Shown: positions 1-21,272, counted from the stretch's first letter. The stretch is DNA of 64,000 nt from Candidatus Zixiibacteriota bacterium (GCA_035380245.1 DAOSXA010000001.1:358004-422003); one strand, 5' to 3'. Made by a program: numbers and translations. Notes: generated by a model not told the origin, from the letters alone.

Positions 1-146
1 TTCTTGCGGTAGTCCGAAAAATCCGAATAGCCCGCGCCAATCCAGACTTGAGCAGTAGTTGTCGTCTCTTCTTCCGACTGCGCACCGACCAGCGGCGACA
101 GGCATAACAGAAGAGCGATGGTAATCAATATCAATGATTTTCTCAT
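1..146 (-). CDS. 5' part of a secreted protein gene running off the left edge; possible outer-membrane partner of the upstream decahaem cytochrome
   Basis: ATG at 146-144 with GGAG (156-153) 6 nt upstream. Translation is MRKSLILITIALLLCLSPLVGAQSEEETTTTAQVWIGAGYSDFSDYRK, a signal peptide plus mature start. Starts 10 nt after the cytochrome stop. Too short for the ORF track because it is truncated. Confidence 0.55.
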   Translation of the reverse strand, partial: MRKSLILITIALLLCLSPLVGAQSEEETTTTAQVWIGAGYSDFSDYRK

Positions 147-156
147 ACTCTTCTCC

Positions 157-1110
157 TTACCTGGTCAAAGTGTTGCCGCCGGTTGAGATGGCTTGCGACG
201 GAAGATCGCTGCCGTGGATCTCAGTGTGACATTGAGTGCATTTGGTGGTCATGCCGCGTTTGAAACTGTCGCGGTCGGACACACCCGCTCGTTCCGGAGC
301 CTGCGGTGTACTGAAAGCACCATCGGCGCTCTCCACGGTGGCATGGAAATGCATCGGATGGCAACTTATACACAGAGCCGGCTCGTTTTGTTTGAGCAGG
401 TTGTTGGCCACGGAACCGTGCGGCGTATGGCAGATCATACAATCTTCCATTACCGGAGCATGCTCGTACACGAACGGTCCTTCCTTGTCGGCATGACAAG
501 TGAAACACAATTCGCGCCTGGAGCCGTCCATGGTAAGCGCTACTTCCTCGCCGTGGACACCGTGGCAGTCCTTACAGGACAGCAGACCCGCACCGATCGG
601 GTGTTTCGAAGGCATGTGAGCTGCCGCCCGCACATTGCTGTGACAGGTATAGCATTTCTCCTCGGTCGGAAGTGCCGATTCCGCTGCCGGTTGGTGTACC
701 GTATGACAACCGGCACAGGTAATCCCGGCGTTTTTGTGCGCTGAGAAGGACCAGTCGTCAAAACGATGACCGCGATGACAGCTCAGACAGGTCTGACTGC
801 TTGACAGTTCGTCGCTCCGAGCCGGATTCATGATCAAATCCGGTTCTCCCCCGGACTCGACATGTTCCGTTCCGGAGCCATGACATGACTCGCATGTCCC
901 GCGCCAGGACTCCGCCTGACCCGAGAAATAGTGCCCGTGCGCAGTTGACGAAAACGCCTCAGCCACATCATCATGGCATTCGGCGCAGACATCGTCCGGC
1001 ACCGCCCAGGTCGCCGGTGCAACAAAAGCCGCAAAAGCGACCAGGGCGCAGACAATTAGGAGTAGTTTAAGCGGTGTTCCTCGTTGTCTGGCTGGTTCGA
1101 AACGATTCAT
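157..1110 (-). CDS. Periplasmic decahaem c-type cytochrome, MtrA/DmsE/PioA/MtoA-like
   Basis: 317 aa with a signal peptide. Ten CxxCH motifs counted: CAECH, CESCH, CLSCH, CAGCH, CYTCH, CKDCH, CFTCH, CMICH, CISCH, CTQCH. Size, haem count and the C-terminal CTQCHTEIHGS resemble the MtrA/DmsE family. GGAGG lies 4 nt upstream of the ATG. Confidence 0.88.
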   Translation of the reverse strand: MNRFEPARQRGTPLKLLLIVCALVAFAAFVAPATWAVPDDVCAECHDDVAEAFSSTAHGHYFSGQAESWRGTCESCHGSGTEHVESGGEPDLIMNPARSDELSSSQTCLSCHRGHRFDDWSFSAHKNAGITCAGCHTVHQPAAESALPTEEKCYTCHSNVRAAAHMPSKHPIGAGLLSCKDCHGVHGEEVALTMDGSRRELCFTCHADKEGPFVYEHAPVMEDCMICHTPHGSVANNLLKQNEPALCISCHPMHFHATVESADGAFSTPQAPERAGVSDRDSFKRGMTTKCTQCHTEIHGSDLPSQAISTGGNTLTR

Positions 1111-1124
1111 AATACCTCCAGATT

Positions 1125-1140
1125 GTTAGTAAACACTAAC
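1125..1140. promoter_or_regulatory. Perfect palindrome GTTAGT-N4-ACTAAC; candidate TetR operator in front of the cytochrome gene
   Basis: gttagtaaacactaac, with 6-bp arms. It sits 5 nt upstream of the cytochrome Shine-Dalgarno. The same arms recur at 1839-1854. Extra TTAGTA/ACTAAC half-site-like copies at 1186-1200 and 1219-1224. Confidence 0.5.
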
Positions 1141-1227
1141 TCACCGATTGCGCGTTCAATCGGCGTTGCTTGAACTCATCTCAATTAGTAATGATTAGTA
1201 GCCCCACTTCTTATCTTAACTAACCCG

Positions 1228-1818
1228 TTATGCTTTCAATCCCCTCACATAAATGGGGACGTTATTAGCGATAGCATCCGTGGGTTTGAGCTCTCGCCCC
1301 TGGTATCCCTTCCAGACCGTGCATCCCAACGCACAGTCAAAAACTCCCCCGATGAAACAACGCGCTGTGATCTCGTTGTCCTTCTTTATGATTAATCCCT
1401 CACTCAGTAACAAATCAAGTTGATTTTTCAGGAACTGCACGTAGGGACCGCGAATCATATTGAACACTTTCTTCGCCTCAGCGTGACCGGTCAGCGTGCA
1501 AAACAGCAACAGGCGACAAAGATCTTCATTCTCGCGAAAAACCGCGAGAATGTGTTCGGCTATAGTGGTCAGGAGTTTCTCGAGGTCTCTTTCATTCTTC
1601 AGGCATTCAAAAAGCTGATCCGTGTTCAAGCGATGTTGAATGGATTCCAGGACCGCTTCATACAACGATCCCTTGCTCTTGAAATGGCGGTACACAGCCG
1701 GTTCAGTAATACCACAGGAAGTAGCCAACTGCTTGACGGTTACCTTATCGTAACCATAGCGGCTAAACAGTTCAGTCGCTTTTTCGACTATTTGCGCCTT
1801 GCGTTCGGAAGCTTTCAG
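1228..1818 (-). CDS. TetR/AcrR-family transcriptional regulator
   Basis: The ORF track starts at an internal TTG (1728). The frame stays open up to a TGA at 1830-1828 and encodes a full TetR HTH (KAQIVEKATELFSRYGYDKVTVKQLATSCGITEPAVYRHFKSKGSLYEAV). No ATG/GTG/TTG lies upstream, so CTG 1818-1816 with GAGG 7 nt upstream is the most plausible start. Confidence 0.8.
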   Translation of the reverse strand: MKASERKAQIVEKATELFSRYGYDKVTVKQLATSCGITEPAVYRHFKSKGSLYEAVLESIQHRLNTDQLFECLKNERDLEKLLTTIAEHILAVFRENEDLCRLLLFCTLTGHAEAKKVFNMIRGPYVQFLKNQLDLLLSEGLIIKKDNEITARCFIGGVFDCALGCTVWKGYQGRELKPTDAIANNVPIYVRGLKA

Positions 1819-1838
1819 ATGTAAACCTCAATGCTTTA

Positions 1839-1854
1839 GTTAGTGCTTACTAAC
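1839..1854. promoter_or_regulatory. Second GTTAGT-N4-ACTAAC palindrome; candidate autoregulatory TetR operator
   Basis: gttagtgcttactaac. Arms are identical to the 1125-1140 site. It lies 9 nt upstream of the GAGG that precedes the proposed TetR start. Confidence 0.5.
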
Positions 1855-1931
1855 ATACCAATTTCACGAACTAAGTCAAGGCTATTTGGCCCGTTGCACC
1901 AACCGATTGGTTATTTGTACCTGGCTGTTAA

Positions 1932-1969
1932 GAAAAAAAGAGACTGCCAAACTATGCTCGGCAGCCTCT
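1932..1969 (-). terminator. Rho-independent terminator of gene 1999-4593
   Basis: On the minus strand, stem agaggctgcc / ggcagtctct (one mismatch) is followed by TTTTTTT (A-run 1932-1938 on plus). Confidence 0.7.
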
Positions 1970-1998
1970 TTGAAAGCTATATAATATAGATGCAACGT

Positions 1999-4593
1999 CT
2001 ACATTATTACAACCAGTTTACCAATCTGGGTGTCGCGTCCGGGGGCATCCACCGTCCAGTAATAAATCCCCGAAACTACCATCTGTGTGTTCCGCGTGAT
2101 CATATTCCAGCTTTCATGGGTATCAGCCCCACTGCCGGCAACTTCATCATGCTCGATTTCGCGGACCATGTCGCCGTCGAGTGTAAAAATCCTGATGGTG
2201 CACTTCGGCGGCAGATTGGCAAAATGTATTTCCCTGGTACGATCCGGCGGACGGTCGGTGTCGACGCGGCCTTCATAACCGCGATCGCGATAACCGGCAT
2301 CAATACGATAGGGATTCGGATAGACATACACTTCCAGATTCTGGTTCTGAACATTATCCCAGCTTGCGATCGGATAAACCAACTGAGCATTGTTGGATAC
2401 TGATGTTTCGAGTGATCCAAGGCCGGTTGCCGGAGAACCATAGTCGAAGGCGGTCACGTTGACATAATACTGAACCGTTGGCAACAGATCGTCGAGAACA
2501 TACTCATATTCATAGTATTTATAATAACCGTCGTCGGTAGTATCCGCAGCGTTAATTGAATCGAGGTTGGGTTCATCCTGGAAAGGATAGATTTTGTGAA
2601 TACCGGTGTTCACACCAAGAATTGACGCATTATAATCCTGGGGTTCGAATATGAACACTGACTCCGGATAATCCGGGTGTACGTACGGATGACTGCGAGT
2701 ATAATCGAGGGGATCGAACTCGGTGTCATTACAGGAACTGCCATAGAGACAACGCAATTGTTCAATAGTGAACGGAGTCTCCTTGAGTTCAAATCCCGGA
2801 TCCGATCCGGCTGCCACATAAACGAGTTTATTATAGTCCTCATGATCGTACGATTGCATCATGGAGAAGCTGGCGGCACGTTCATCCCGCGCCAGATAAA
2901 CGCGATAACCCTCGAAATCCATCTCCCGACTGAAGACGTCTCGCGTAGTCTCCGAATAGAAGCCATTCCAACGAATCCTTAGAGATCCTACATCGTCACG
3001 TTCAACCCAGAATTCCGGCGCCGGCGGCGGAGATGCCCCTCGGAAATCCGGAATACCGTCTCCTTCATACCAGAAAGTATCACAGACAGTCTCTTCCTGC
3101 CCGTTGATCGTTACGGTATTACAGCATTCATGCCACTTGCCGGAGAATGAGTCGCCGTCCGTGTCAACTCCGGGATTATCGTAGACCCAACTGGCCCAGC
3201 GTGAGTTGAGGGCAAGATCGCTGAAATCCAGATTCGCATAAAAGGCATCGGGATTGTACGGCAAGTTGTTAAGGGCATTGTTCTCGTCCTGATGAAGATC
3301 TTCACCTCCGACGTATGCAAACGAAAGCGGGAGAGTCTGCCCCGGATTGATATCGAACGGACCGAATGAAATAAGATAACGAGTGTCATATCCGTCGGCA
3401 AAATCATCCGCCAGATCCTGGTTGGGGTAAAGCCAGAGAGTATCATTTACCTGAATCGAGGCGGTGTAGACCTGGTCGTAGTCAAACTCGCGATTGCGCA
3501 TGACATAGTATTTTTCTTCATCACCGACCGGAGTACCGAGATTACCGTGACGGAAAGTTCGAAACGGCTCGGCCAGTCGACCGACATTGGCTTTCTCGCG
3601 AGGGCCGAAATCCAGTGCGGCCGAAGTATTACCGATCCACCAGTTGAAACTGACATCCAACGACTCAGCCGGGGTACGTACGATTCGTGTCGCTGTCACA
3701 TTAGGACAGGGCTGCTTCGTGTCGCTCCCTGCCGGCAGGTAGCTGAAGTCACCATCGTTGTCGGCAATGAAAGCGGCGAAAACCGTATCGAGAAAAGTGC
3801 AATTGCCGTATTCGGCCGGATACGTCTCCATGAAACCACATATATCGTCCTGTGCGCCGTCAGAGGTTCTCCCTTCAAAAGCGACATCGGCATCAACGTA
3901 AATACCCATGTACACATCCTGAAGGTTCGAGGTGCCGATATTGGTAATCTTATAATCGAACAGGACGAAATCTTCGGCATAAGCGTAAGACCAGGCGTAG
4001 GTCGCCTGAGTTATCTCGATATCGAGCGGCTGATGCGGCTTGCCGGCAACATCAGTAATCAATCCAACTAACAATGTATCGGAGTAGGTCGCAATATAGT
4101 CCTGTTCCGAGATAGCGCCATCATATTCAGGGGCATTGGGATCACGAATAGACCGATATATAATATCCCCAAAGGGAGATTCATCCGGGGCAAATTCAGA
4201 CTCGACTGAATTCCAGCCGTCGGCTCCTAGCGAAACGAGGGTATCGCGATCAACCACCGCCCCGATCCAGAACGCAGCACCGTAAAGATACGAGATTCTT
4301 GAACCTATAGGATACTCACACGACGCTACTTCTTCACCGGTAAAGCAGTCAACTGCCTGTCCTTCCGCGTACTTAATCCCGAACGTCCCGTTGTTGTTCA
4401 CTCCCAACTCGATTTTGCCGACATTGTGACCGACCAGGCAATAAGCCGGTAATGCGGCTAATCCTCCCGGTTCTTTGCTTTGCTCGGAAACACCCGGAGC
4501 AGTTCGGGGAAACGCAACTGTCGCCAACCCTACGACAATGGCCAAACTCCCTGCGCACTCTCTAAAATATCGACTCATTCTCATAAACCACAC
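1999..4593 (-). CDS. Large secreted protein of unknown function with T9SS-like (FlgD-Ig-like) C-terminal sorting domain; paralog 1
   Basis: 864 aa with a signal-like N-terminus. No catalytic motif recognised. Asp-rich NPGVDTDGD stretch. The C-terminal ~110 aa carry YPNPY...CTIRIFTLDGDMV...VSGIYYWTV...GKLVVIM. Colinear with 4746-7340. Confidence 0.85.
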   Translation of the reverse strand: MWFMRMSRYFRECAGSLAIVVGLATVAFPRTAPGVSEQSKEPGGLAALPAYCLVGHNVGKIELGVNNNGTFGIKYAEGQAVDCFTGEEVASCEYPIGSRISYLYGAAFWIGAVVDRDTLVSLGADGWNSVESEFAPDESPFGDIIYRSIRDPNAPEYDGAISEQDYIATYSDTLLVGLITDVAGKPHQPLDIEITQATYAWSYAYAEDFVLFDYKITNIGTSNLQDVYMGIYVDADVAFEGRTSDGAQDDICGFMETYPAEYGNCTFLDTVFAAFIADNDGDFSYLPAGSDTKQPCPNVTATRIVRTPAESLDVSFNWWIGNTSAALDFGPREKANVGRLAEPFRTFRHGNLGTPVGDEEKYYVMRNREFDYDQVYTASIQVNDTLWLYPNQDLADDFADGYDTRYLISFGPFDINPGQTLPLSFAYVGGEDLHQDENNALNNLPYNPDAFYANLDFSDLALNSRWASWVYDNPGVDTDGDSFSGKWHECCNTVTINGQEETVCDTFWYEGDGIPDFRGASPPPAPEFWVERDDVGSLRIRWNGFYSETTRDVFSREMDFEGYRVYLARDERAASFSMMQSYDHEDYNKLVYVAAGSDPGFELKETPFTIEQLRCLYGSSCNDTEFDPLDYTRSHPYVHPDYPESVFIFEPQDYNASILGVNTGIHKIYPFQDEPNLDSINAADTTDDGYYKYYEYEYVLDDLLPTVQYYVNVTAFDYGSPATGLGSLETSVSNNAQLVYPIASWDNVQNQNLEVYVYPNPYRIDAGYRDRGYEGRVDTDRPPDRTREIHFANLPPKCTIRIFTLDGDMVREIEHDEVAGSGADTHESWNMITRNTQMVVSGIYYWTVDAPGRDTQIGKLVVIM

Positions 4594-4745: not shown

Positions 4746-7340
4746 TTACATAATCACAACCAGCTTGCCGATTTGAGTCTCACCGGTCGAAGACTCAACG
4801 GTCCAGTAGTAAATACCGGAAACGACCATCTGGGTGTTACGGGTAATCATGTTCCATGACTCATGTGTATCGGTACCGCTACCGGTATCTTCATTATGTT
4901 CCAATTCACGCACCAAGTCGCCGTCAAGTGTATAAATACGGATAGTGCACTTGGGCGGCAGATTCGCAAAATGGATTTCCCGGGTACGATCCGGCGGGCG
5001 GTCGGTATCGACACGTCCTTCGAAACCACGGTCACGATACCCGGCATCGAGTCGATATGGATTCGGGTATACGTAGACCTCGAGATCATGATTCTGCACA
5101 TCTTCCCAAGACGGCAACGGAAACACTTCCACCGTCCCGCTGGTGACCGATGTCTCCAGCGACGCCAGCCCTGATTCCGGTGAACCGTAATCGAAAGCTG
5201 TGACGTTCACATAATATGGCACGGTCGGGAGCAGATTTTCAATCGTATACTCATACTCGTAGTATTTGAAGTAGCCGTCATCAGTCAGGTAAACAGTATC
5301 ATTCTCAGGAATCTGATCGTTGAGAATCGAGTCAGGAGTCATACCTTCATCCGGCTTGGGAGCCTTCGGATATAACTTGCAAATATCGGTAGTGACCCCC
5401 AGCTCGGAAGCATTGTAGTCCTGCGGTTCAAAGATGAGCATAGAGTCACCCTTCGCATAAGGATGCGAAGTCGTGTAATCTAGAGGATTGAAGTTCTCAT
5501 CATCACAGCTCTCTCCATACCAACAACGCAGGCTGTCAATAATAAACGGTGCTTCATGAAGTTTGTATTCGCCATCTGATCTGTCATAGACCAGCTTGTT
5601 ATAGTTTTCCTGGTCGTAGGACTGCATCATACTATAACTTGCGGCTCTTTCATCACGGGACATATAAACGCGATACCCCTCAAAGTCCGCAATGCGGGAG
5701 AATACATCTTTCGTAGTCTCCGACAGCAAACCGTTCCAGCGAATGTGAATCGTGCTGATTTCCGGACGGGTCACCCAGAACTCCGGAGCCGGCGGCGGAG
5801 AAGCACCCCGGAAATCCGGTACGTTGTCGCCACGAATCCAAATCGTATCGATGACCGCTCCCGTCGAGTCGTATTTCAACAAAGAATCACCGAAATCACC
5901 ATCACCGTCAGTATCCACTCCCGGATTATCGTAAACCCAACTGGCCCAGCGCGCGTTTAGAGCCAGATCCGAGAAGTCCAGATTGGCATAAAATTGATCA
6001 GGATGATCAGGTAAATTCTGTGTAGCGTTACCCTCAACGGTGTGCAATCCTTCACCCGCCACATAGGCAAATGAAATTGGGAGCGTCTGTCCGGCACTAA
6101 TCTCAAATGGTCCAAATGACAGCAAATAACGGGTGTCGTAACCATCGGCGAAATCTGCCGCCAGATCCTGATTAGGATATTGCCAAAGAGTATCGTTGAT
6201 CTGGATAGAAGCCGTATAAATCTGATCGTAGTCAAATTCGCGATTCCGCAACTGGTAATACTTATTGGCATCGCCTTCAGGAGTACCTAAGCCACCAGTC
6301 CGGAAATCACGCCACTCCTCAGCCCAACGACCTTTTCCCGGTCGTTCACGTGGACCGAAATCCAGTGAGGGGTTTCCGTTGCCGATCCACCAGTTGAAAC
6401 TGACATCCAACGAGTCTGACGGCGTACGCACGATACGAGTAGCCGTCACATCAGGACAAGGCATCTTTTGACCGGCATCGTTGGTGTAATCGAAATCACC
6501 ATCGTTGTCGGCAATAAACGCAATAAACACTGTATCCAGATACTCAAGTCCTTCTTGCTCGGTTGGATAAGTCTCAAGGAAACCGCAGATATCATCTTGA
6601 GAACCTACAGCGTCACGTCCGTCGAAAGATACATCGGCATCGACATAAATACCCATGTACACATCGGACAGAAGATCAGTCCCGATATTCGAAATTTTGT
6701 AATCGAACAGTACAAAATCCTCAGCGTACGAATACGACCAGGCATAAGAGGCCTCGGTCACTTCGATATTCAACGGCATATGGGGCCGACCGAAGAAATC
6801 GTTGTCAACACCTTGTGTTAACGTATCCGTATAGACTGAGATGTAATCCTCTTCGGAGATAGCGTCTTCATAAGCATCCGATTCGGGATCAGTAATCGAT
6901 CGGTAGACCATATAGCCGAACGGCGGTTCATCCGGGTACATTTCGTTGGCGGTTTGCCAACCGTCTGCGCCAACCGACACCAACGTATCCCTACCGACTA
7001 CAGCACCAATCCAGAATGCGGCACCGAACAGATATGAAATCTGAGAGTTCTTGGGATACTCACATGAGGGGACTTCTTCTCCGGTGAAACAGTCGACCGC
7101 CTGACCGACCGTATACTGATTACCGAACGTCCCATTGTTGTTCACGCCCAGTTCGATCTTTCCAACACGGTGCCCTGCCAGACAGTGGGCAGGCGACAGA
7201 GACATGTAACCCAGATCGTTCCTGCGTTGATCCGCCTCGAGGCTCATTCGGCCGAACGCATCCGCGGCCAGAACCACTAACATCACTAAAGTGATCAGGA
7301 TCAGAGTTGTTTTACGATAAAGCATAATCCTCGCGCGCAT
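4746..7340 (-). CDS. Large secreted protein of unknown function with T9SS-like C-terminal sorting domain; paralog 2
   Basis: 864 aa with a signal peptide (LILITLVMLVVLAADAFG). Aligns end to end with 1999-4593. The C-terminal domain is nearly identical (YPNPYRLDAGYRDRGFEGRVDTDRPPDRTREIHFANLPPKCTIRIYTLDGD...GKLVVIM). Confidence 0.85.
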   Translation of the reverse strand: MRARIMLYRKTTLILITLVMLVVLAADAFGRMSLEADQRRNDLGYMSLSPAHCLAGHRVGKIELGVNNNGTFGNQYTVGQAVDCFTGEEVPSCEYPKNSQISYLFGAAFWIGAVVGRDTLVSVGADGWQTANEMYPDEPPFGYMVYRSITDPESDAYEDAISEEDYISVYTDTLTQGVDNDFFGRPHMPLNIEVTEASYAWSYSYAEDFVLFDYKISNIGTDLLSDVYMGIYVDADVSFDGRDAVGSQDDICGFLETYPTEQEGLEYLDTVFIAFIADNDGDFDYTNDAGQKMPCPDVTATRIVRTPSDSLDVSFNWWIGNGNPSLDFGPRERPGKGRWAEEWRDFRTGGLGTPEGDANKYYQLRNREFDYDQIYTASIQINDTLWQYPNQDLAADFADGYDTRYLLSFGPFEISAGQTLPISFAYVAGEGLHTVEGNATQNLPDHPDQFYANLDFSDLALNARWASWVYDNPGVDTDGDGDFGDSLLKYDSTGAVIDTIWIRGDNVPDFRGASPPPAPEFWVTRPEISTIHIRWNGLLSETTKDVFSRIADFEGYRVYMSRDERAASYSMMQSYDQENYNKLVYDRSDGEYKLHEAPFIIDSLRCWYGESCDDENFNPLDYTTSHPYAKGDSMLIFEPQDYNASELGVTTDICKLYPKAPKPDEGMTPDSILNDQIPENDTVYLTDDGYFKYYEYEYTIENLLPTVPYYVNVTAFDYGSPESGLASLETSVTSGTVEVFPLPSWEDVQNHDLEVYVYPNPYRLDAGYRDRGFEGRVDTDRPPDRTREIHFANLPPKCTIRIYTLDGDLVRELEHNEDTGSGTDTHESWNMITRNTQMVVSGIYYWTVESSTGETQIGKLVVIM

Positions 7341-19550: not shown

Positions 19551-19578
19551 GTAGGCCGGGATCCCTGTGATCCCGGCC
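19551..19578 (+). repeat. REP-like element: GTAG head plus perfect 10-bp-stem hairpin
   Basis: GTAG-GCCGGGATC-cctgt-GATCCCGGCC. An inverted copy with a GCAG head lies at 19848-19876. Partial copies at 20192-20205 and about 18873-18886. Confidence 0.65.
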
Positions 19579-19603
19579 GTTTTGTCGGGAACGGCAAACC
19601 ATA

Positions 19604-19635
19604 GGGCAGGTCCGTCATCGAACCTGCCCTTTTTT
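19604..19635 (+). terminator. Rho-independent terminator after 19018-19527
   Basis: gggcaggt / acctgccc stem with a 10-nt loop, then TTTTTT. Confidence 0.8.
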
Positions 19636-19847
19636 CATAGTTGTTGTCAAAATCTCACTTCGCGATACGCTTTCGGCGGACGGGGGATTTTGACTTACAG
19701 CGTTGCTTCTTGTATTTATACAAACCGCAAATCGCAGAGCTTGCCGGCCTGATCCAATATGCATTTCACCTGTCCCTAATTCCCCCTTGCCCAAATCGCG
19801 ATTCTGTGCTAAATAGAAGTCCGTTGTGATGATGTCGATCTCGGTTC

Positions 19848-20205
19848 GCCGGGATCACAGGGATCCCGGCCTGCGGATTGACTACAAAGCAAGTCACGTA
19901 GGTCGGGTTGCTTGCATGCTTGCAACCTGACACTGCAGAGCAGGTCTCGGAGAGACATACTCTACAAGGATGACTTGTTGAATCGAAAGTCCCACCCGAG
20001 GGGTGGGGCACCGAATCTTGAGTAGGTCAAAAATCGTGTCCGCTGAAGGCGGATCGAAAAGCGAAGTTTTGACAGCAAACGAAGCCTCGGTATGGGGGCA
20101 GACGAGGACGTCTGCCGCCCACACAGGTCTCGGAGAGACATGCGCTACTTCGGGGCAGACGACGTCTGCCGCCCACGAGAACGAATAGATTATCCCGGCC
20201 TGCGG
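19848..20205. repeat. Dense array of about nine short hairpin units (REP-like, several sequence classes)
   Basis: Units are listed by coordinates.
- 19848-19876: gccgggatc/gatcccggc.
- 19898-19931: GTAG + gtcgggttgc...gcaacctgac.
- 19941-19965: gtctc-gga-gagac...CTAC.
- 19991-20008: cccaccc/gggtggg.
- 20039-20053: tccgc/gcgga.
- 20094-20122: ggcagacg/cgtctgcc + CCAC.
- 20124-20148: gtctc-gga-gagac...CTAC.
- 20152-20176: a second ggcagacg-type unit.
- 20192-20205: a half copy. Confidence 0.7.
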
Positions 20206-20234
20206 GAATGACTGCACAGCGAGGAGTAAACACG

Positions 20235-21272
20235 GTGACGAACGAAGACCTCAAAGACCTCGAACAAGCCATAGCCGAACAGGCGAAACTATCGGGATTT
20301 TCCGGCTGCATACTTATTTCCGAAAAAGGCCGACAACTTTACACCGGCGCCTTCGGCTTTGCCAATATCCCCGACGAAATCCCGAACGAGATCGGAACCC
20401 GTTTTGCCGTCGCTTCCGGCAGTAAGGCTTTCACCGCCGTCGCCGTTTTACAGCTAATCGATCAGGGACGGATCAGCCTCGAAACACCGATCAAAGCGGT
20501 GGTTGACGCCGAGTTCCCCAACTTCTCCCTCGACCTCAAGGTTCGCCATCTGTTGACCCACAGCTCCGGCATTAAGGATTATTTCGATGAGGCCGGCGGC
20601 GAGGATTATGAGAATATCTGGAAAGATCGCCCGGTTTACAACTATCGCACGCCGCGCGATTTCCTGCCGCTTTTTCGAGAAAACGGACAGCACTTCGCTC
20701 CGGGTGAAAAATTCAGTTACAACAACGCGGCCTTTATCATTCTGGCGATCATGATCGAGGACCTGGCTCATATGCCATTCCTCGACTATATCCAGTCGTA
20801 TATTTTCGAACCGGCCGACATGACCCGCTCCGGGTATTTCTGCACCGAGCTGCTCCCCGAAAAAACCGCCCGTGGTTATATTGTCGATACCGACGGCCGT
20901 ATGCGCAGCAACATTTTCGCTCTCCCGGTCGTGGGCAGCGGCGACGGCGGCGCATACACCACGGCCGAAGACATGGACAAGTTCTGGAGCGCTTTGCTCG
21001 GACAACGCCTCCTTTCACCGACCCTGACTGAACTGATCGTTACACCGCAAATCGAAGCCAGGGAAGAAGGGGATAATCTTTGGTACGGCCTCGGCGTATG
21101 GCTGCGTCGCGAGCAGGAGAAAACGCTTTCTTACTACGTAACCGGCTGGGACCCCGGGGTGGCCATGATCTCGGAGTATTTGGTCGATTCCGGTCATCAC
21201 GTCTGTCTTCTCAGCAACCAGAACGACGGCGTCTTCCAGCTTTACCGGTCAATCCTCTCACGTCTCAGGTAG
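20235..21272 (+). CDS. Serine hydrolase of the beta-lactamase / penicillin-binding-protein family
   Basis: SxxK (ASGSKAF) and YxN (SYNNAAF) motifs. Start moved to GTG 20235 (GAGGAG 20221-20226, 8-nt spacer). The ORF-track start at 20208 lies inside the repeat array. Confidence 0.85.
   Translation: MTNEDLKDLEQAIAEQAKLSGFSGCILISEKGRQLYTGAFGFANIPDEIPNEIGTRFAVASGSKAFTAVAVLQLIDQGRISLETPIKAVVDAEFPNFSLDLKVRHLLTHSSGIKDYFDEAGGEDYENIWKDRPVYNYRTPRDFLPLFRENGQHFAPGEKFSYNNAAFIILAIMIEDLAHMPFLDYIQSYIFEPADMTRSGYFCTELLPEKTARGYIVDTDGRMRSNIFALPVVGSGDGGAYTTAEDMDKFWSALLGQRLLSPTLTELIVTPQIEAREEGDNLWYGLGVWLRREQEKTLSYYVTGWDPGVAMISEYLVDSGHHVCLLSNQNDGVFQLYRSILSRLR

Follow-up and report, generated by a model that had tools for sequence, protein, structure and literature searches.

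A conserved TetR-type operator at the head of a probable outer-membrane electron conduit cluster in Zixibacteria

Results

Organization of the locus

We analysed a stretch of 64,000 nucleotides (nt) of Candidatus Zixiibacteriota bacterium DNA (GCA_035380245.1 DAOSXA010000001.1:358004-422003), hereafter the window. On the minus strand, its left end carries a gene of the TetR family (tetR), a gene for a decahaem c-type cytochrome and the 5′ end of an outer-membrane barrel gene that is cut by the window edge (Table 1). This order, taken from the open reading frame (ORF) listing and from a reading of positions 1-2400, agrees throughout with the genes and coordinates of an initial annotation of the same DNA, which had proposed a TetR-gated porin-cytochrome conduit of the MtrAB/PioAB kind. 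The proposal was largely right, as the cytochrome is of the MtrA/DmsE type and its partner gene encodes a barrel. The precise family, however, is that of OmcK/OmcL (GSU2203/GSU2204) of Geobacter sulfurreducens, and not that of MtrAB or PioAB themselves. We consider that the left end of the window probably opens a gene cluster of Zixibacteria, tetR - omcK-like - omcL-like - cbcL-like, which would encode an outer-membrane electron conduit switched by TetR.

A conserved operator overlaps the tetR promoter

The perfect palindrome GTTAGT-N4-ACTAAC, which had been noticed twice in this region, is indeed exact in both copies, the one before tetR (O1) lying 9 nt and the one before the cytochrome gene (O2) 5 nt upstream of the respective Shine-Dalgarno sequence. 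These two copies are the only matches in the 64 kb even when one mismatch is allowed, for a chance expectation of 0.02, and two copies were obtained in none of 100 shuffles. A position-weight matrix built from the orthologous sites described below also finds the same two places only in the window.

Orthologous loci were collected through the alignment of TetR, keeping one genome per species, which gave 61 Zixibacteria-type loci with 43-61% identity. A GTTAGT-N6-TAAC site with at most one mismatch is present within 90 nt upstream of 55 of the 61 tetR genes, mostly 30-40 nt before the start, while the remaining sequence of these loci contains such sites at a background rate of 0.024 per kb per strand (28 sites in 1.17 million positions). 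The phylum consensus of the operator, wwGTTAGTkArynnTAACTA, has a nearly invariant left half and a looser right half; the copies in the window are, as it turns out, perfectly palindromic.

The −10 hexamer of the predicted tetR promoter (TATGTT) overlaps the first three bases of O1, and the repressor would therefore autoregulate by occluding RNA polymerase. A match of at least 5/6 to TTGACA lies 12-29 nt upstream in 37 of the 55 orthologous sites, with modes at 16 and 19 nt. In the window, a terminator (1971-1937) separates the tetR promoter from the upstream gene. Judged from the DNA, O1 and its promoter are arranged as is classical for a TetR gene under autoregulation, and a TetR dimer would bind the inverted repeat. 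Phylogenetic footprinting supports the TetR gating claimed by the initial annotation.

The same annotation had listed extra half-site-like copies between tetR and O2. They are present, but the 88%-identical locus L083 has not kept them, and they score below 12 bits with the operator matrix, under its threshold. We rejected them as operators, and they are probably due to chance.

The regulator and its start codon

The tetR gene is an intact frame of 196 codons. Upstream of the helix-turn-helix the frame offers a single start, a CTG at 1818 (1816-1818) that the initial annotation had missed, preceded 6 nt upstream by GAGGT; no ATG, GTG or TTG is found there. Alignment with 30 orthologues of 194-205 amino acids (aa) places the N-terminus exactly at this codon, which is also the start in L084 (86% identical) and is replaced by TTG in L082 (75%). 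The TTG at 1728, chosen by ORF and gene callers, was rejected: none of the orthologues agrees with it, and the DNA-binding domain would lose its helices 1-2. In the public copies of the contig the gene calls start further in, and the resulting products of 145-166 aa are devoid of the DNA-binding helices.

The helix-turn-helix domain of the protein matches PF00440 (E-value (E) 1.3e-15, residues 10-56). Among 31 orthologues, C154 and C162 are invariant and C35 is near-invariant, and these cysteines may serve in redox or metal sensing. We noticed that C154 and C162 fall in a TARCF.GMVFDC motif of the ligand domain. For this C-terminal domain, searches returned only generic TetR matches in the PDB and a weak TetR_C_7 match in Pfam, with no close characterized relative.

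The second operator and the control of the cytochrome gene

The half-sites of O2 are identical in the window, L083 and L084, and the spacers differ (GTTT, ACTA and CCTA, respectively), whereas L082 carries at the position of O2 a perfect palindrome of 22 nt instead. A second site before the cytochrome gene is found in about 17 of 40 orthologous loci. Where it is missing, the gap between tetR and the cytochrome gene is only 60-100 nt and holds no terminator, and the cytochrome genes would therefore be co-transcribed from the operator-controlled tetR promoter.

The reported hairpin (1144-1163) does exist, and its stem can be lengthened to 9 pairs (1142-1165). It is kept in the two closest relatives, L083 and L084, with changes in the loop only, and is absent in L082; the U-rich stretch that follows it is O2 itself. 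Neither a scan nor inspection by eye revealed a sigma-70-type promoter before the cytochrome gene in the window. The TTGAAC inside the hairpin was considered as a −35 hexamer and rejected, since it lies only 10-15 nt from any −10-like hexamer. O2 may therefore act on transcripts reading through from tetR and not at a promoter: transcripts from the tetR promoter would partly terminate at the hairpin, and bound TetR would block the remaining read-through. Such a roadblock is, from the sequence features, the most likely role of O2, and the covering of a non-canonical promoter a less likely one.

A decahaem cytochrome of the MtrA/DmsE type

The cytochrome ORF encodes a protein of 317 aa with ten CXXCH motifs and an N-terminal hydrophobic segment ending in TWA, as expected from the decahaem cytochrome of the initial annotation. 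Its best NCBIfam match is NF041028 (GSU2203 family decahaem), with 323.4 bits for a curated cut-off of 325, and some close homologues carry the GSU2203-family name at NCBI. The protein passes TIGR03508 (DmsE family) with 227.3 bits (cut-off 192.2) over profile positions 3-257 of 258, and its residues 40-306 match MtrA of the Shewanella baltica Mtr complex (PDB 6r2q_A) with E 7e-42. Its homologues are numerous, at 53-88% identity, and where they are named they are Zixibacteria, GN15 or Fibrobacteres-Chlorobi-Bacteroidetes (FCB)-group proteins.

A grouping with pentahaem duplications of the NrfB type, which the initial annotation had named as evidence that would overturn its reading, did not emerge from the profile and PDB searches. 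Indeed, NrfB matches the N-terminal half only (residues 37-164, E 1.7e-6) and the NrfB models give 39-45 bits for cut-offs of 167-184, whereas MtrA aligns over the full length; we rejected this origin.

The partner gene and its MtrB-like barrel

The GSU2204-family partner gene starts with an ATG at 146, behind a GGAG and 10 nt downstream of the cytochrome stop. Its continuation could be followed on three longer contigs from independent samples (L001-L003), which contain the identical cytochrome sequence. There, the barrel gene runs for 587 codons to an in-frame TGA and then for 153 further codons, 741 codons in all, and its product ends in ...GFRFDF, a C-terminus typical of outer-membrane proteins. 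The question whether the truncated gene would encode a beta-barrel of 600-800 aa once the contig was extended, as first suggested, is thus answered by a frame of 741 codons and an all-beta model.

Residues 1-587 match NF041027 ("GSU2204 family CXXCH-containing (seleno)protein, part 1") with 524.8 bits, for a cut-off of 350, over positions 2-580 of 580, so that the end of the profile coincides exactly with the TGA; taken alone, the 48 residues that lie within the window reach only E 0.006. An HCxxCH motif (H203, C204, C207, H208) is invariant in 48 homologues. A search of PDB sequences with the barrel profile gave no match even at E 10, and fold comparison was therefore used. For residues 1-587, AlphaFold predicts an all-beta structure in which about 25 long strands can be counted, where 26-28 or so would be expected of a large MtrB-like fold, a number that we regard as sufficiently close (predicted local distance difference test (pLDDT) 78, predicted template modelling score (pTM) 0.71). 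Its top Foldseek match in the PDB is MtrB (6r2q_B), with E 2.3e-11 and a template modelling (TM) score of 0.62; TonB-dependent receptors and LptD come next at about 1e-5, five orders of magnitude behind.

A conserved, probable selenocysteine codon in the barrel gene

The in-frame codon of the barrel gene is TGA in all 35 loci in which both parts of the gene are present, in the context ALFDG-U-[AG]GH. On L001 it lies at 12726-12728, just left of window position 1 and so out of sight of the initial annotation, and a hairpin resembling a selenocysteine insertion sequence (SECIS) starts 21 nt after it (12747-12763). The loop contains GU, and the hairpin has a folding energy of −27.6 kcal/mol in its local context (z = −3.1). 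Across 33 genomes, 88.9% of the cells of its six apical pairs are paired and all six pairs show compensatory changes, one of them being A-U in 16 genomes, G-C in 12 and U-A in 2. None of 500 shuffles reaches the observed covariation values, which collapse when the register is slid. The hairpin thus looks like a bacterial SECIS element, and the barrel can be assigned to a known selenoprotein family with an invariant CXXCH. The C-terminal outer-membrane signature lies beyond the UGA, and read-through is therefore needed for a complete barrel.

Automatic gene calls are consequently wrong at two points of this locus. They split the barrel at the UGA into hypothetical proteins of 587 and 145 aa, and they shorten the CTG-started tetR.

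Linked genes and a third operator

Genes resembling omcK and omcL directly follow tetR in 40 of the 61 orthologous loci, and other multihaem cytochrome genes do so in 13 of 19 further loci examined, that is, 53 of 61 in total. Downstream of the barrel gene and a terminator, outside the window, lies a gene for an 855-aa protein in which eight CXXCH motifs are fused to an FdnI/Ni_hydr_CYTB cytochrome b domain (TIGR01583, E 7e-40, residues 627-821; PF01292, E 3e-16). We take this architecture to be that of Geobacter CbcL (GSU0274), the likeness being one of domain architecture only.

A third operator, GTTAGTgagcgattACTAAC, stands before this cbcL-like gene behind TTGACA-N17-TACGTT (L001 13329-13377, the operator itself at 13355-13374, outside the window), and its TACGTT/GTTAGT promoter-operator is built identically to that of tetR. 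This operator is conserved in L082 (14200-14227), and L061 has a comparable site. In L046, L048 and L054 the tetR, omcK, omcL and cbcL genes adjoin one another, and there the tetR operator is the sole one. The same set of genes thus appears to come under control in one of two ways, as a single operon or by means of several operators.

In other genomes a recurrent variant site, GTTAGTGAATATTTAC (GTTAGTG(A/G)(A/G)TATTTAC), was noticed before further multihaem cytochrome genes of an 11-haem type, which follow tetR orthologues at a distance of a few kb (L004 11521, L005 11556, L007 11550, L020 11648, L063 11779, L022 8437, L030 8311 and L064 8334). This site may be part of the same regulon, or a paralogous TetR may be its regulator. 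In L082, here a relative at 66% identity, two divergent CbcL-like genes (936 and 868 aa) occupy 11365-16916 with an operator in their shared intergenic region. On L001, a 1461-aa multi-PAS protein, possibly a cluster-associated sensor, is encoded after the cbcL-like gene (16609-20954, outside the window).

Features and neighbouring genes in the window

The features of the left end are collected in Table 1.

Table 1. Predicted features at the left end of the window (gene orientation is given for the operators).
Feature	Position	Strand	Family or basis
Barrel gene 5′ end, 48 codons including signal peptide	1..146	-	OmcL/GSU2204 family, cut by window edge
Decahaem c-type cytochrome, 317 aa, predicted periplasmic, signal peptide	157..1110	-	OmcK (GSU2203) / DmsE-MtrA family
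Shine-Dalgarno GGAGG of cytochrome gene	1115..1119	-	Sequence reading; kept in L082, L083, L084
Operator O2, GTTAGT-gttt-ACTAAC	1125..1140		Motif search and operator matrix
9-pair hairpin between tetR and cytochrome gene, weak, terminator/attenuator-like	1142..1165	-	Folding, terminator scan
Half-site-like copies: ATTAGTA twice at 1184-1200, ACTAAC at 1219-1224	1184..1224		Probably not functional
TetR-family regulator, 196 aa, CTG start	1228..1818	-	PF00440 and orthologue alignment
Shine-Dalgarno GAGGT of tetR	1825..1829	-	Sequence reading; kept in L084
Operator O1, GTTAGT-aagc-ACTAAC, putative autoregulatory site	1839..1854		30.5 bits with operator matrix
Predicted sigma-70-type tetR promoter: TTGACT (1879-1874), 16 nt, TATGTT (1857-1852)	1852..1879	-	Promoter scan
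Strong intrinsic terminator, 16-pair stem and T-run, ends upstream 864-aa gene	1937..1971	-	Terminator scan

Beyond the cluster, the minus strand of the window encodes two paralogous 864-aa proteins (1999-4593 and 4746-7340) that match no Pfam family and whose C-terminal tails show a weak likeness (E 1e-4 to 1e-2) to PorZ and to the type A sorting domain of the type IX secretion system (T9SS), which suggests that they may be secreted by a type IX system. Further on, the same strand encodes a peptidylarginine deiminase (PAD_porph) protein of 981 aa (7808-10753) that adjoins a 1758-aa Peptidase_C25 (gingipain-like) protein (10938-16214). This pairing, here on a Zixibacteria contig, is reminiscent of PPAD and the gingipains of Porphyromonas.

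Discussion

The conserved operator, its overlap with the tetR promoter and the identity of the linked genes point to a cluster in which the repressor would control its own synthesis together with that of an electron path. The cytochrome would act as a periplasmic wire of the MtrA/DmsE type inside an MtrB-like outer-membrane barrel, and the CbcL-like protein, if its Geobacter counterpart is a guide, would couple the periplasm to the quinone pool. Electrons would thus pass from the inner membrane across the outer membrane to external acceptors, or they may be taken up in the opposite sense, as in MtoAB and PioAB. A signal acting on TetR would release the repressor and switch on all three units together.

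Several observations weigh against this TetR-switched conduit. On the side of regulation, about 23 of the 40 orthologous loci lack the second site, the cytochrome gene of the window shows no recognizable promoter at O2, and the CTG start of tetR is weak. On the side of the proteins, the cytochrome stays 1.6 bits under the NF041028 cut-off, and the barrel is below the threshold of Pfam MtrB_PioB (PF11854), with E 0.083 and 11.9 bits for 23 needed, over its C-terminal part only; a precomputed PF11854 match exists for 2 of 120 barrel homologues. Besides the silence of the PDB sequence search, the structure model covers the first 587 residues of the 741-codon barrel. Moreover, no outer-surface (MtrC-like) cytochrome and no terminal reductase gene is encoded in the cluster. 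Finally, selA, selB, selD and tRNA-Sec were not located, and a tRNA search of the window found no tRNA gene.

How else could the locus be read? The cytochrome and barrel could form an outer-membrane redox enzyme for a soluble or colloidal substrate (selenium, sulfur or a metalloid) and not a conduit to minerals or electrodes, the haem and selenocysteine of the barrel being a catalytic or relay site in a layout that would be analogous to DmsEF feeding a surface reductase. The invariant HCxxCH and the strictly conserved UGA in DG-U-[AG]GH fit this idea, as selenocysteine is usually catalytic, and so do the match of the cytochrome to the DmsE family above its cut-off and the lack of an MtrC-like surface cytochrome in the cluster. 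However, no gene for a terminal reductase lies nearby, and two-component conduits of the MtoAB/PioAB type that work without a surface cytochrome are established (PMC4245776). Moreover, OmcK and OmcL are induced in Geobacter on the iron oxides haematite and magnetite (PMC4070692) and, for syntrophic sulfate reducers, have been interpreted as a putative conduit of the porin:cytochrome type (PMC10553843). We therefore hold the redox enzyme to be unlikely as compared with the conduit, although it is the most serious of its competitors.

The regulatory half of our proposal can be challenged separately. TetR might only autoregulate, or control unrelated genes, with O2 a by-product of local duplication or of chance and the cytochrome genes mere neighbours. 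The loci without a second site (more than half), the missing promoter at O2 and the report that Geobacter OrfS does not regulate its adjacent cluster (PMC4589669) all speak for such a limited role. Yet it is precisely in the loci devoid of a second site that the short, terminator-free gap would let the cytochrome genes be transcribed from the controlled tetR promoter. In addition, the O2 half-sites have been preserved in three lineages while the spacer mutated, a third site with a full promoter precedes the cbcL-like gene, and multihaem cytochrome genes follow most of the tetR orthologues, which together make a purely autoregulatory TetR quite improbable. Least of all do we expect the palindromes to have nothing to do with TetR and to be structural elements of RNA or DNA (terminators, a dispersed repeat or small hairpins). 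In the mRNA, the palindrome can fold into a hairpin of 6 pairs immediately ahead of the Shine-Dalgarno sequence, and O2 comes after a terminator-like stem. But there are only two copies in 64 kb, the rate in the remainder of 1.2 Mb of related loci is as low as about 0.024 per kb, and the position relative to the tetR promoters is fixed in 55 genomes; and in most genomes the right half-site is degenerate (nnTAAC), which would break an RNA hairpin and is normal for operators. Taken together, this makes the structural explanation extremely improbable, and we retain the TetR-switched conduit as the probable reading.

Zixibacteria are an uncultured, widespread phylum of sediments, and to our knowledge little has been learnt, beyond Shewanella and Geobacter, of how extracellular electron transfer is regulated. 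The operator consensus, the promoter architecture and the three-unit regulon offer a testable handle on the signal for mineral respiration or electron uptake, and the operator motif can be used for regulon prediction in any Zixibacteria metagenome-assembled genome (MAG). The barrel, predicted to bear both haem and selenocysteine, is catalogued but functionally unexplored. More speculatively, this TetR subfamily could be a phylum-wide master switch for extracellular respiration that senses redox state or metal through C154/C162 and coordinates an inner-membrane quinol oxidase with a conduit that has a barrel redox-active in its own right. We give this extended scenario a low probability; if true, a covalent haem and a selenocysteine in a barrel would represent a mechanistically new mode of electron transfer, or of catalysis, across the outer membrane.

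Compared with known systems, the parts of the module are of known kinds. In 2013, the first genome of Zixibacteria was already reported to contain a cluster encoding homologues of MtrA and MtrB (PMC3903129), and the GSU2204 family is listed as an MtrB/PioB-type barrel selenoprotein in a 2026 review of prokaryotic selenoproteins (PMC13188914). The closest system is OmcK/OmcL, with the same decahaem gene directly followed by a barrel gene that has one CXXCH and a UGA codon, and with NF041028 and NF041027 as best NCBIfam matches. The module is an Mtr-like decahaem-barrel pair of this kind, whose barrel haem motif and selenocysteine had been catalogued before. It differs from OmcK/OmcL in being found in Zixibacteria and linked to TetR and, in this lineage, in having a cbcL-like gene under the same operator. 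The published description calls OmcK extracellular, whereas the homology to MtrA suggests a periplasmic wire inserted in the barrel. For the inner-membrane partner, the same fusion of a c-type domain with an FdnI-type b domain is found in CbcL, a quinol oxidoreductase of the inner membrane with multihaem c and dihaem b parts, for which nine haems are reported, compared with the eight CXXCH of the protein encoded here.

MtrAB, MtoAB, PioAB and DmsEF (Shewanella, Sideroxydans, Rhodopseudomonas) share with the window the cytochrome-then-barrel order, a ten-haem MtrA-like cytochrome and the MtrB-like fold, and MtoAB and PioAB likewise have no surface cytochrome. MtrB, in contrast, is devoid of the haem motif and the predicted selenocysteine carried by the barrel studied here, and the regulator is also different. 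As for TetR repressors with short inverted-repeat operators, the N-terminal domain of our TetR matches models of SlmA (NF007015, E 4.8e-15; PDB 4gct, E 6e-14). The SlmA half-site, GTGAGT, is resembled by the GTTAGT of the window, but the C-terminal domain, the invariant cysteine pair and the genomic role set the present regulator apart from SlmA and its like.

The initial annotation had called TetR control of such a module an unusual regulatory arrangement, which is overstated. Indeed, genes of the TetR family precede porin-cytochrome clusters of Geobacter, namely orfR and orfS with omcB and omcC in G. sulfurreducens, and lie next to some extHIJKL homologues (PMC4589669, PMC4245776, PMC6148476). 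In orfR-ombB-omaB-omcB as well as orfS-ombC-omaC-omcC, as here, the TetR-family gene lies immediately upstream of the cluster and on the same strand. However, the porin and cytochrome families are unrelated (Pcc as opposed to Mtr-like), and no operator is defined for OrfR or OrfS in the papers cited. Our literature search found no report of the present operator, of its overlap with the promoter, of its conservation in Zixibacteria or of a three-unit regulon that includes an inner-membrane component. What the window adds to these known systems is therefore the operator site and the definition of the regulon.

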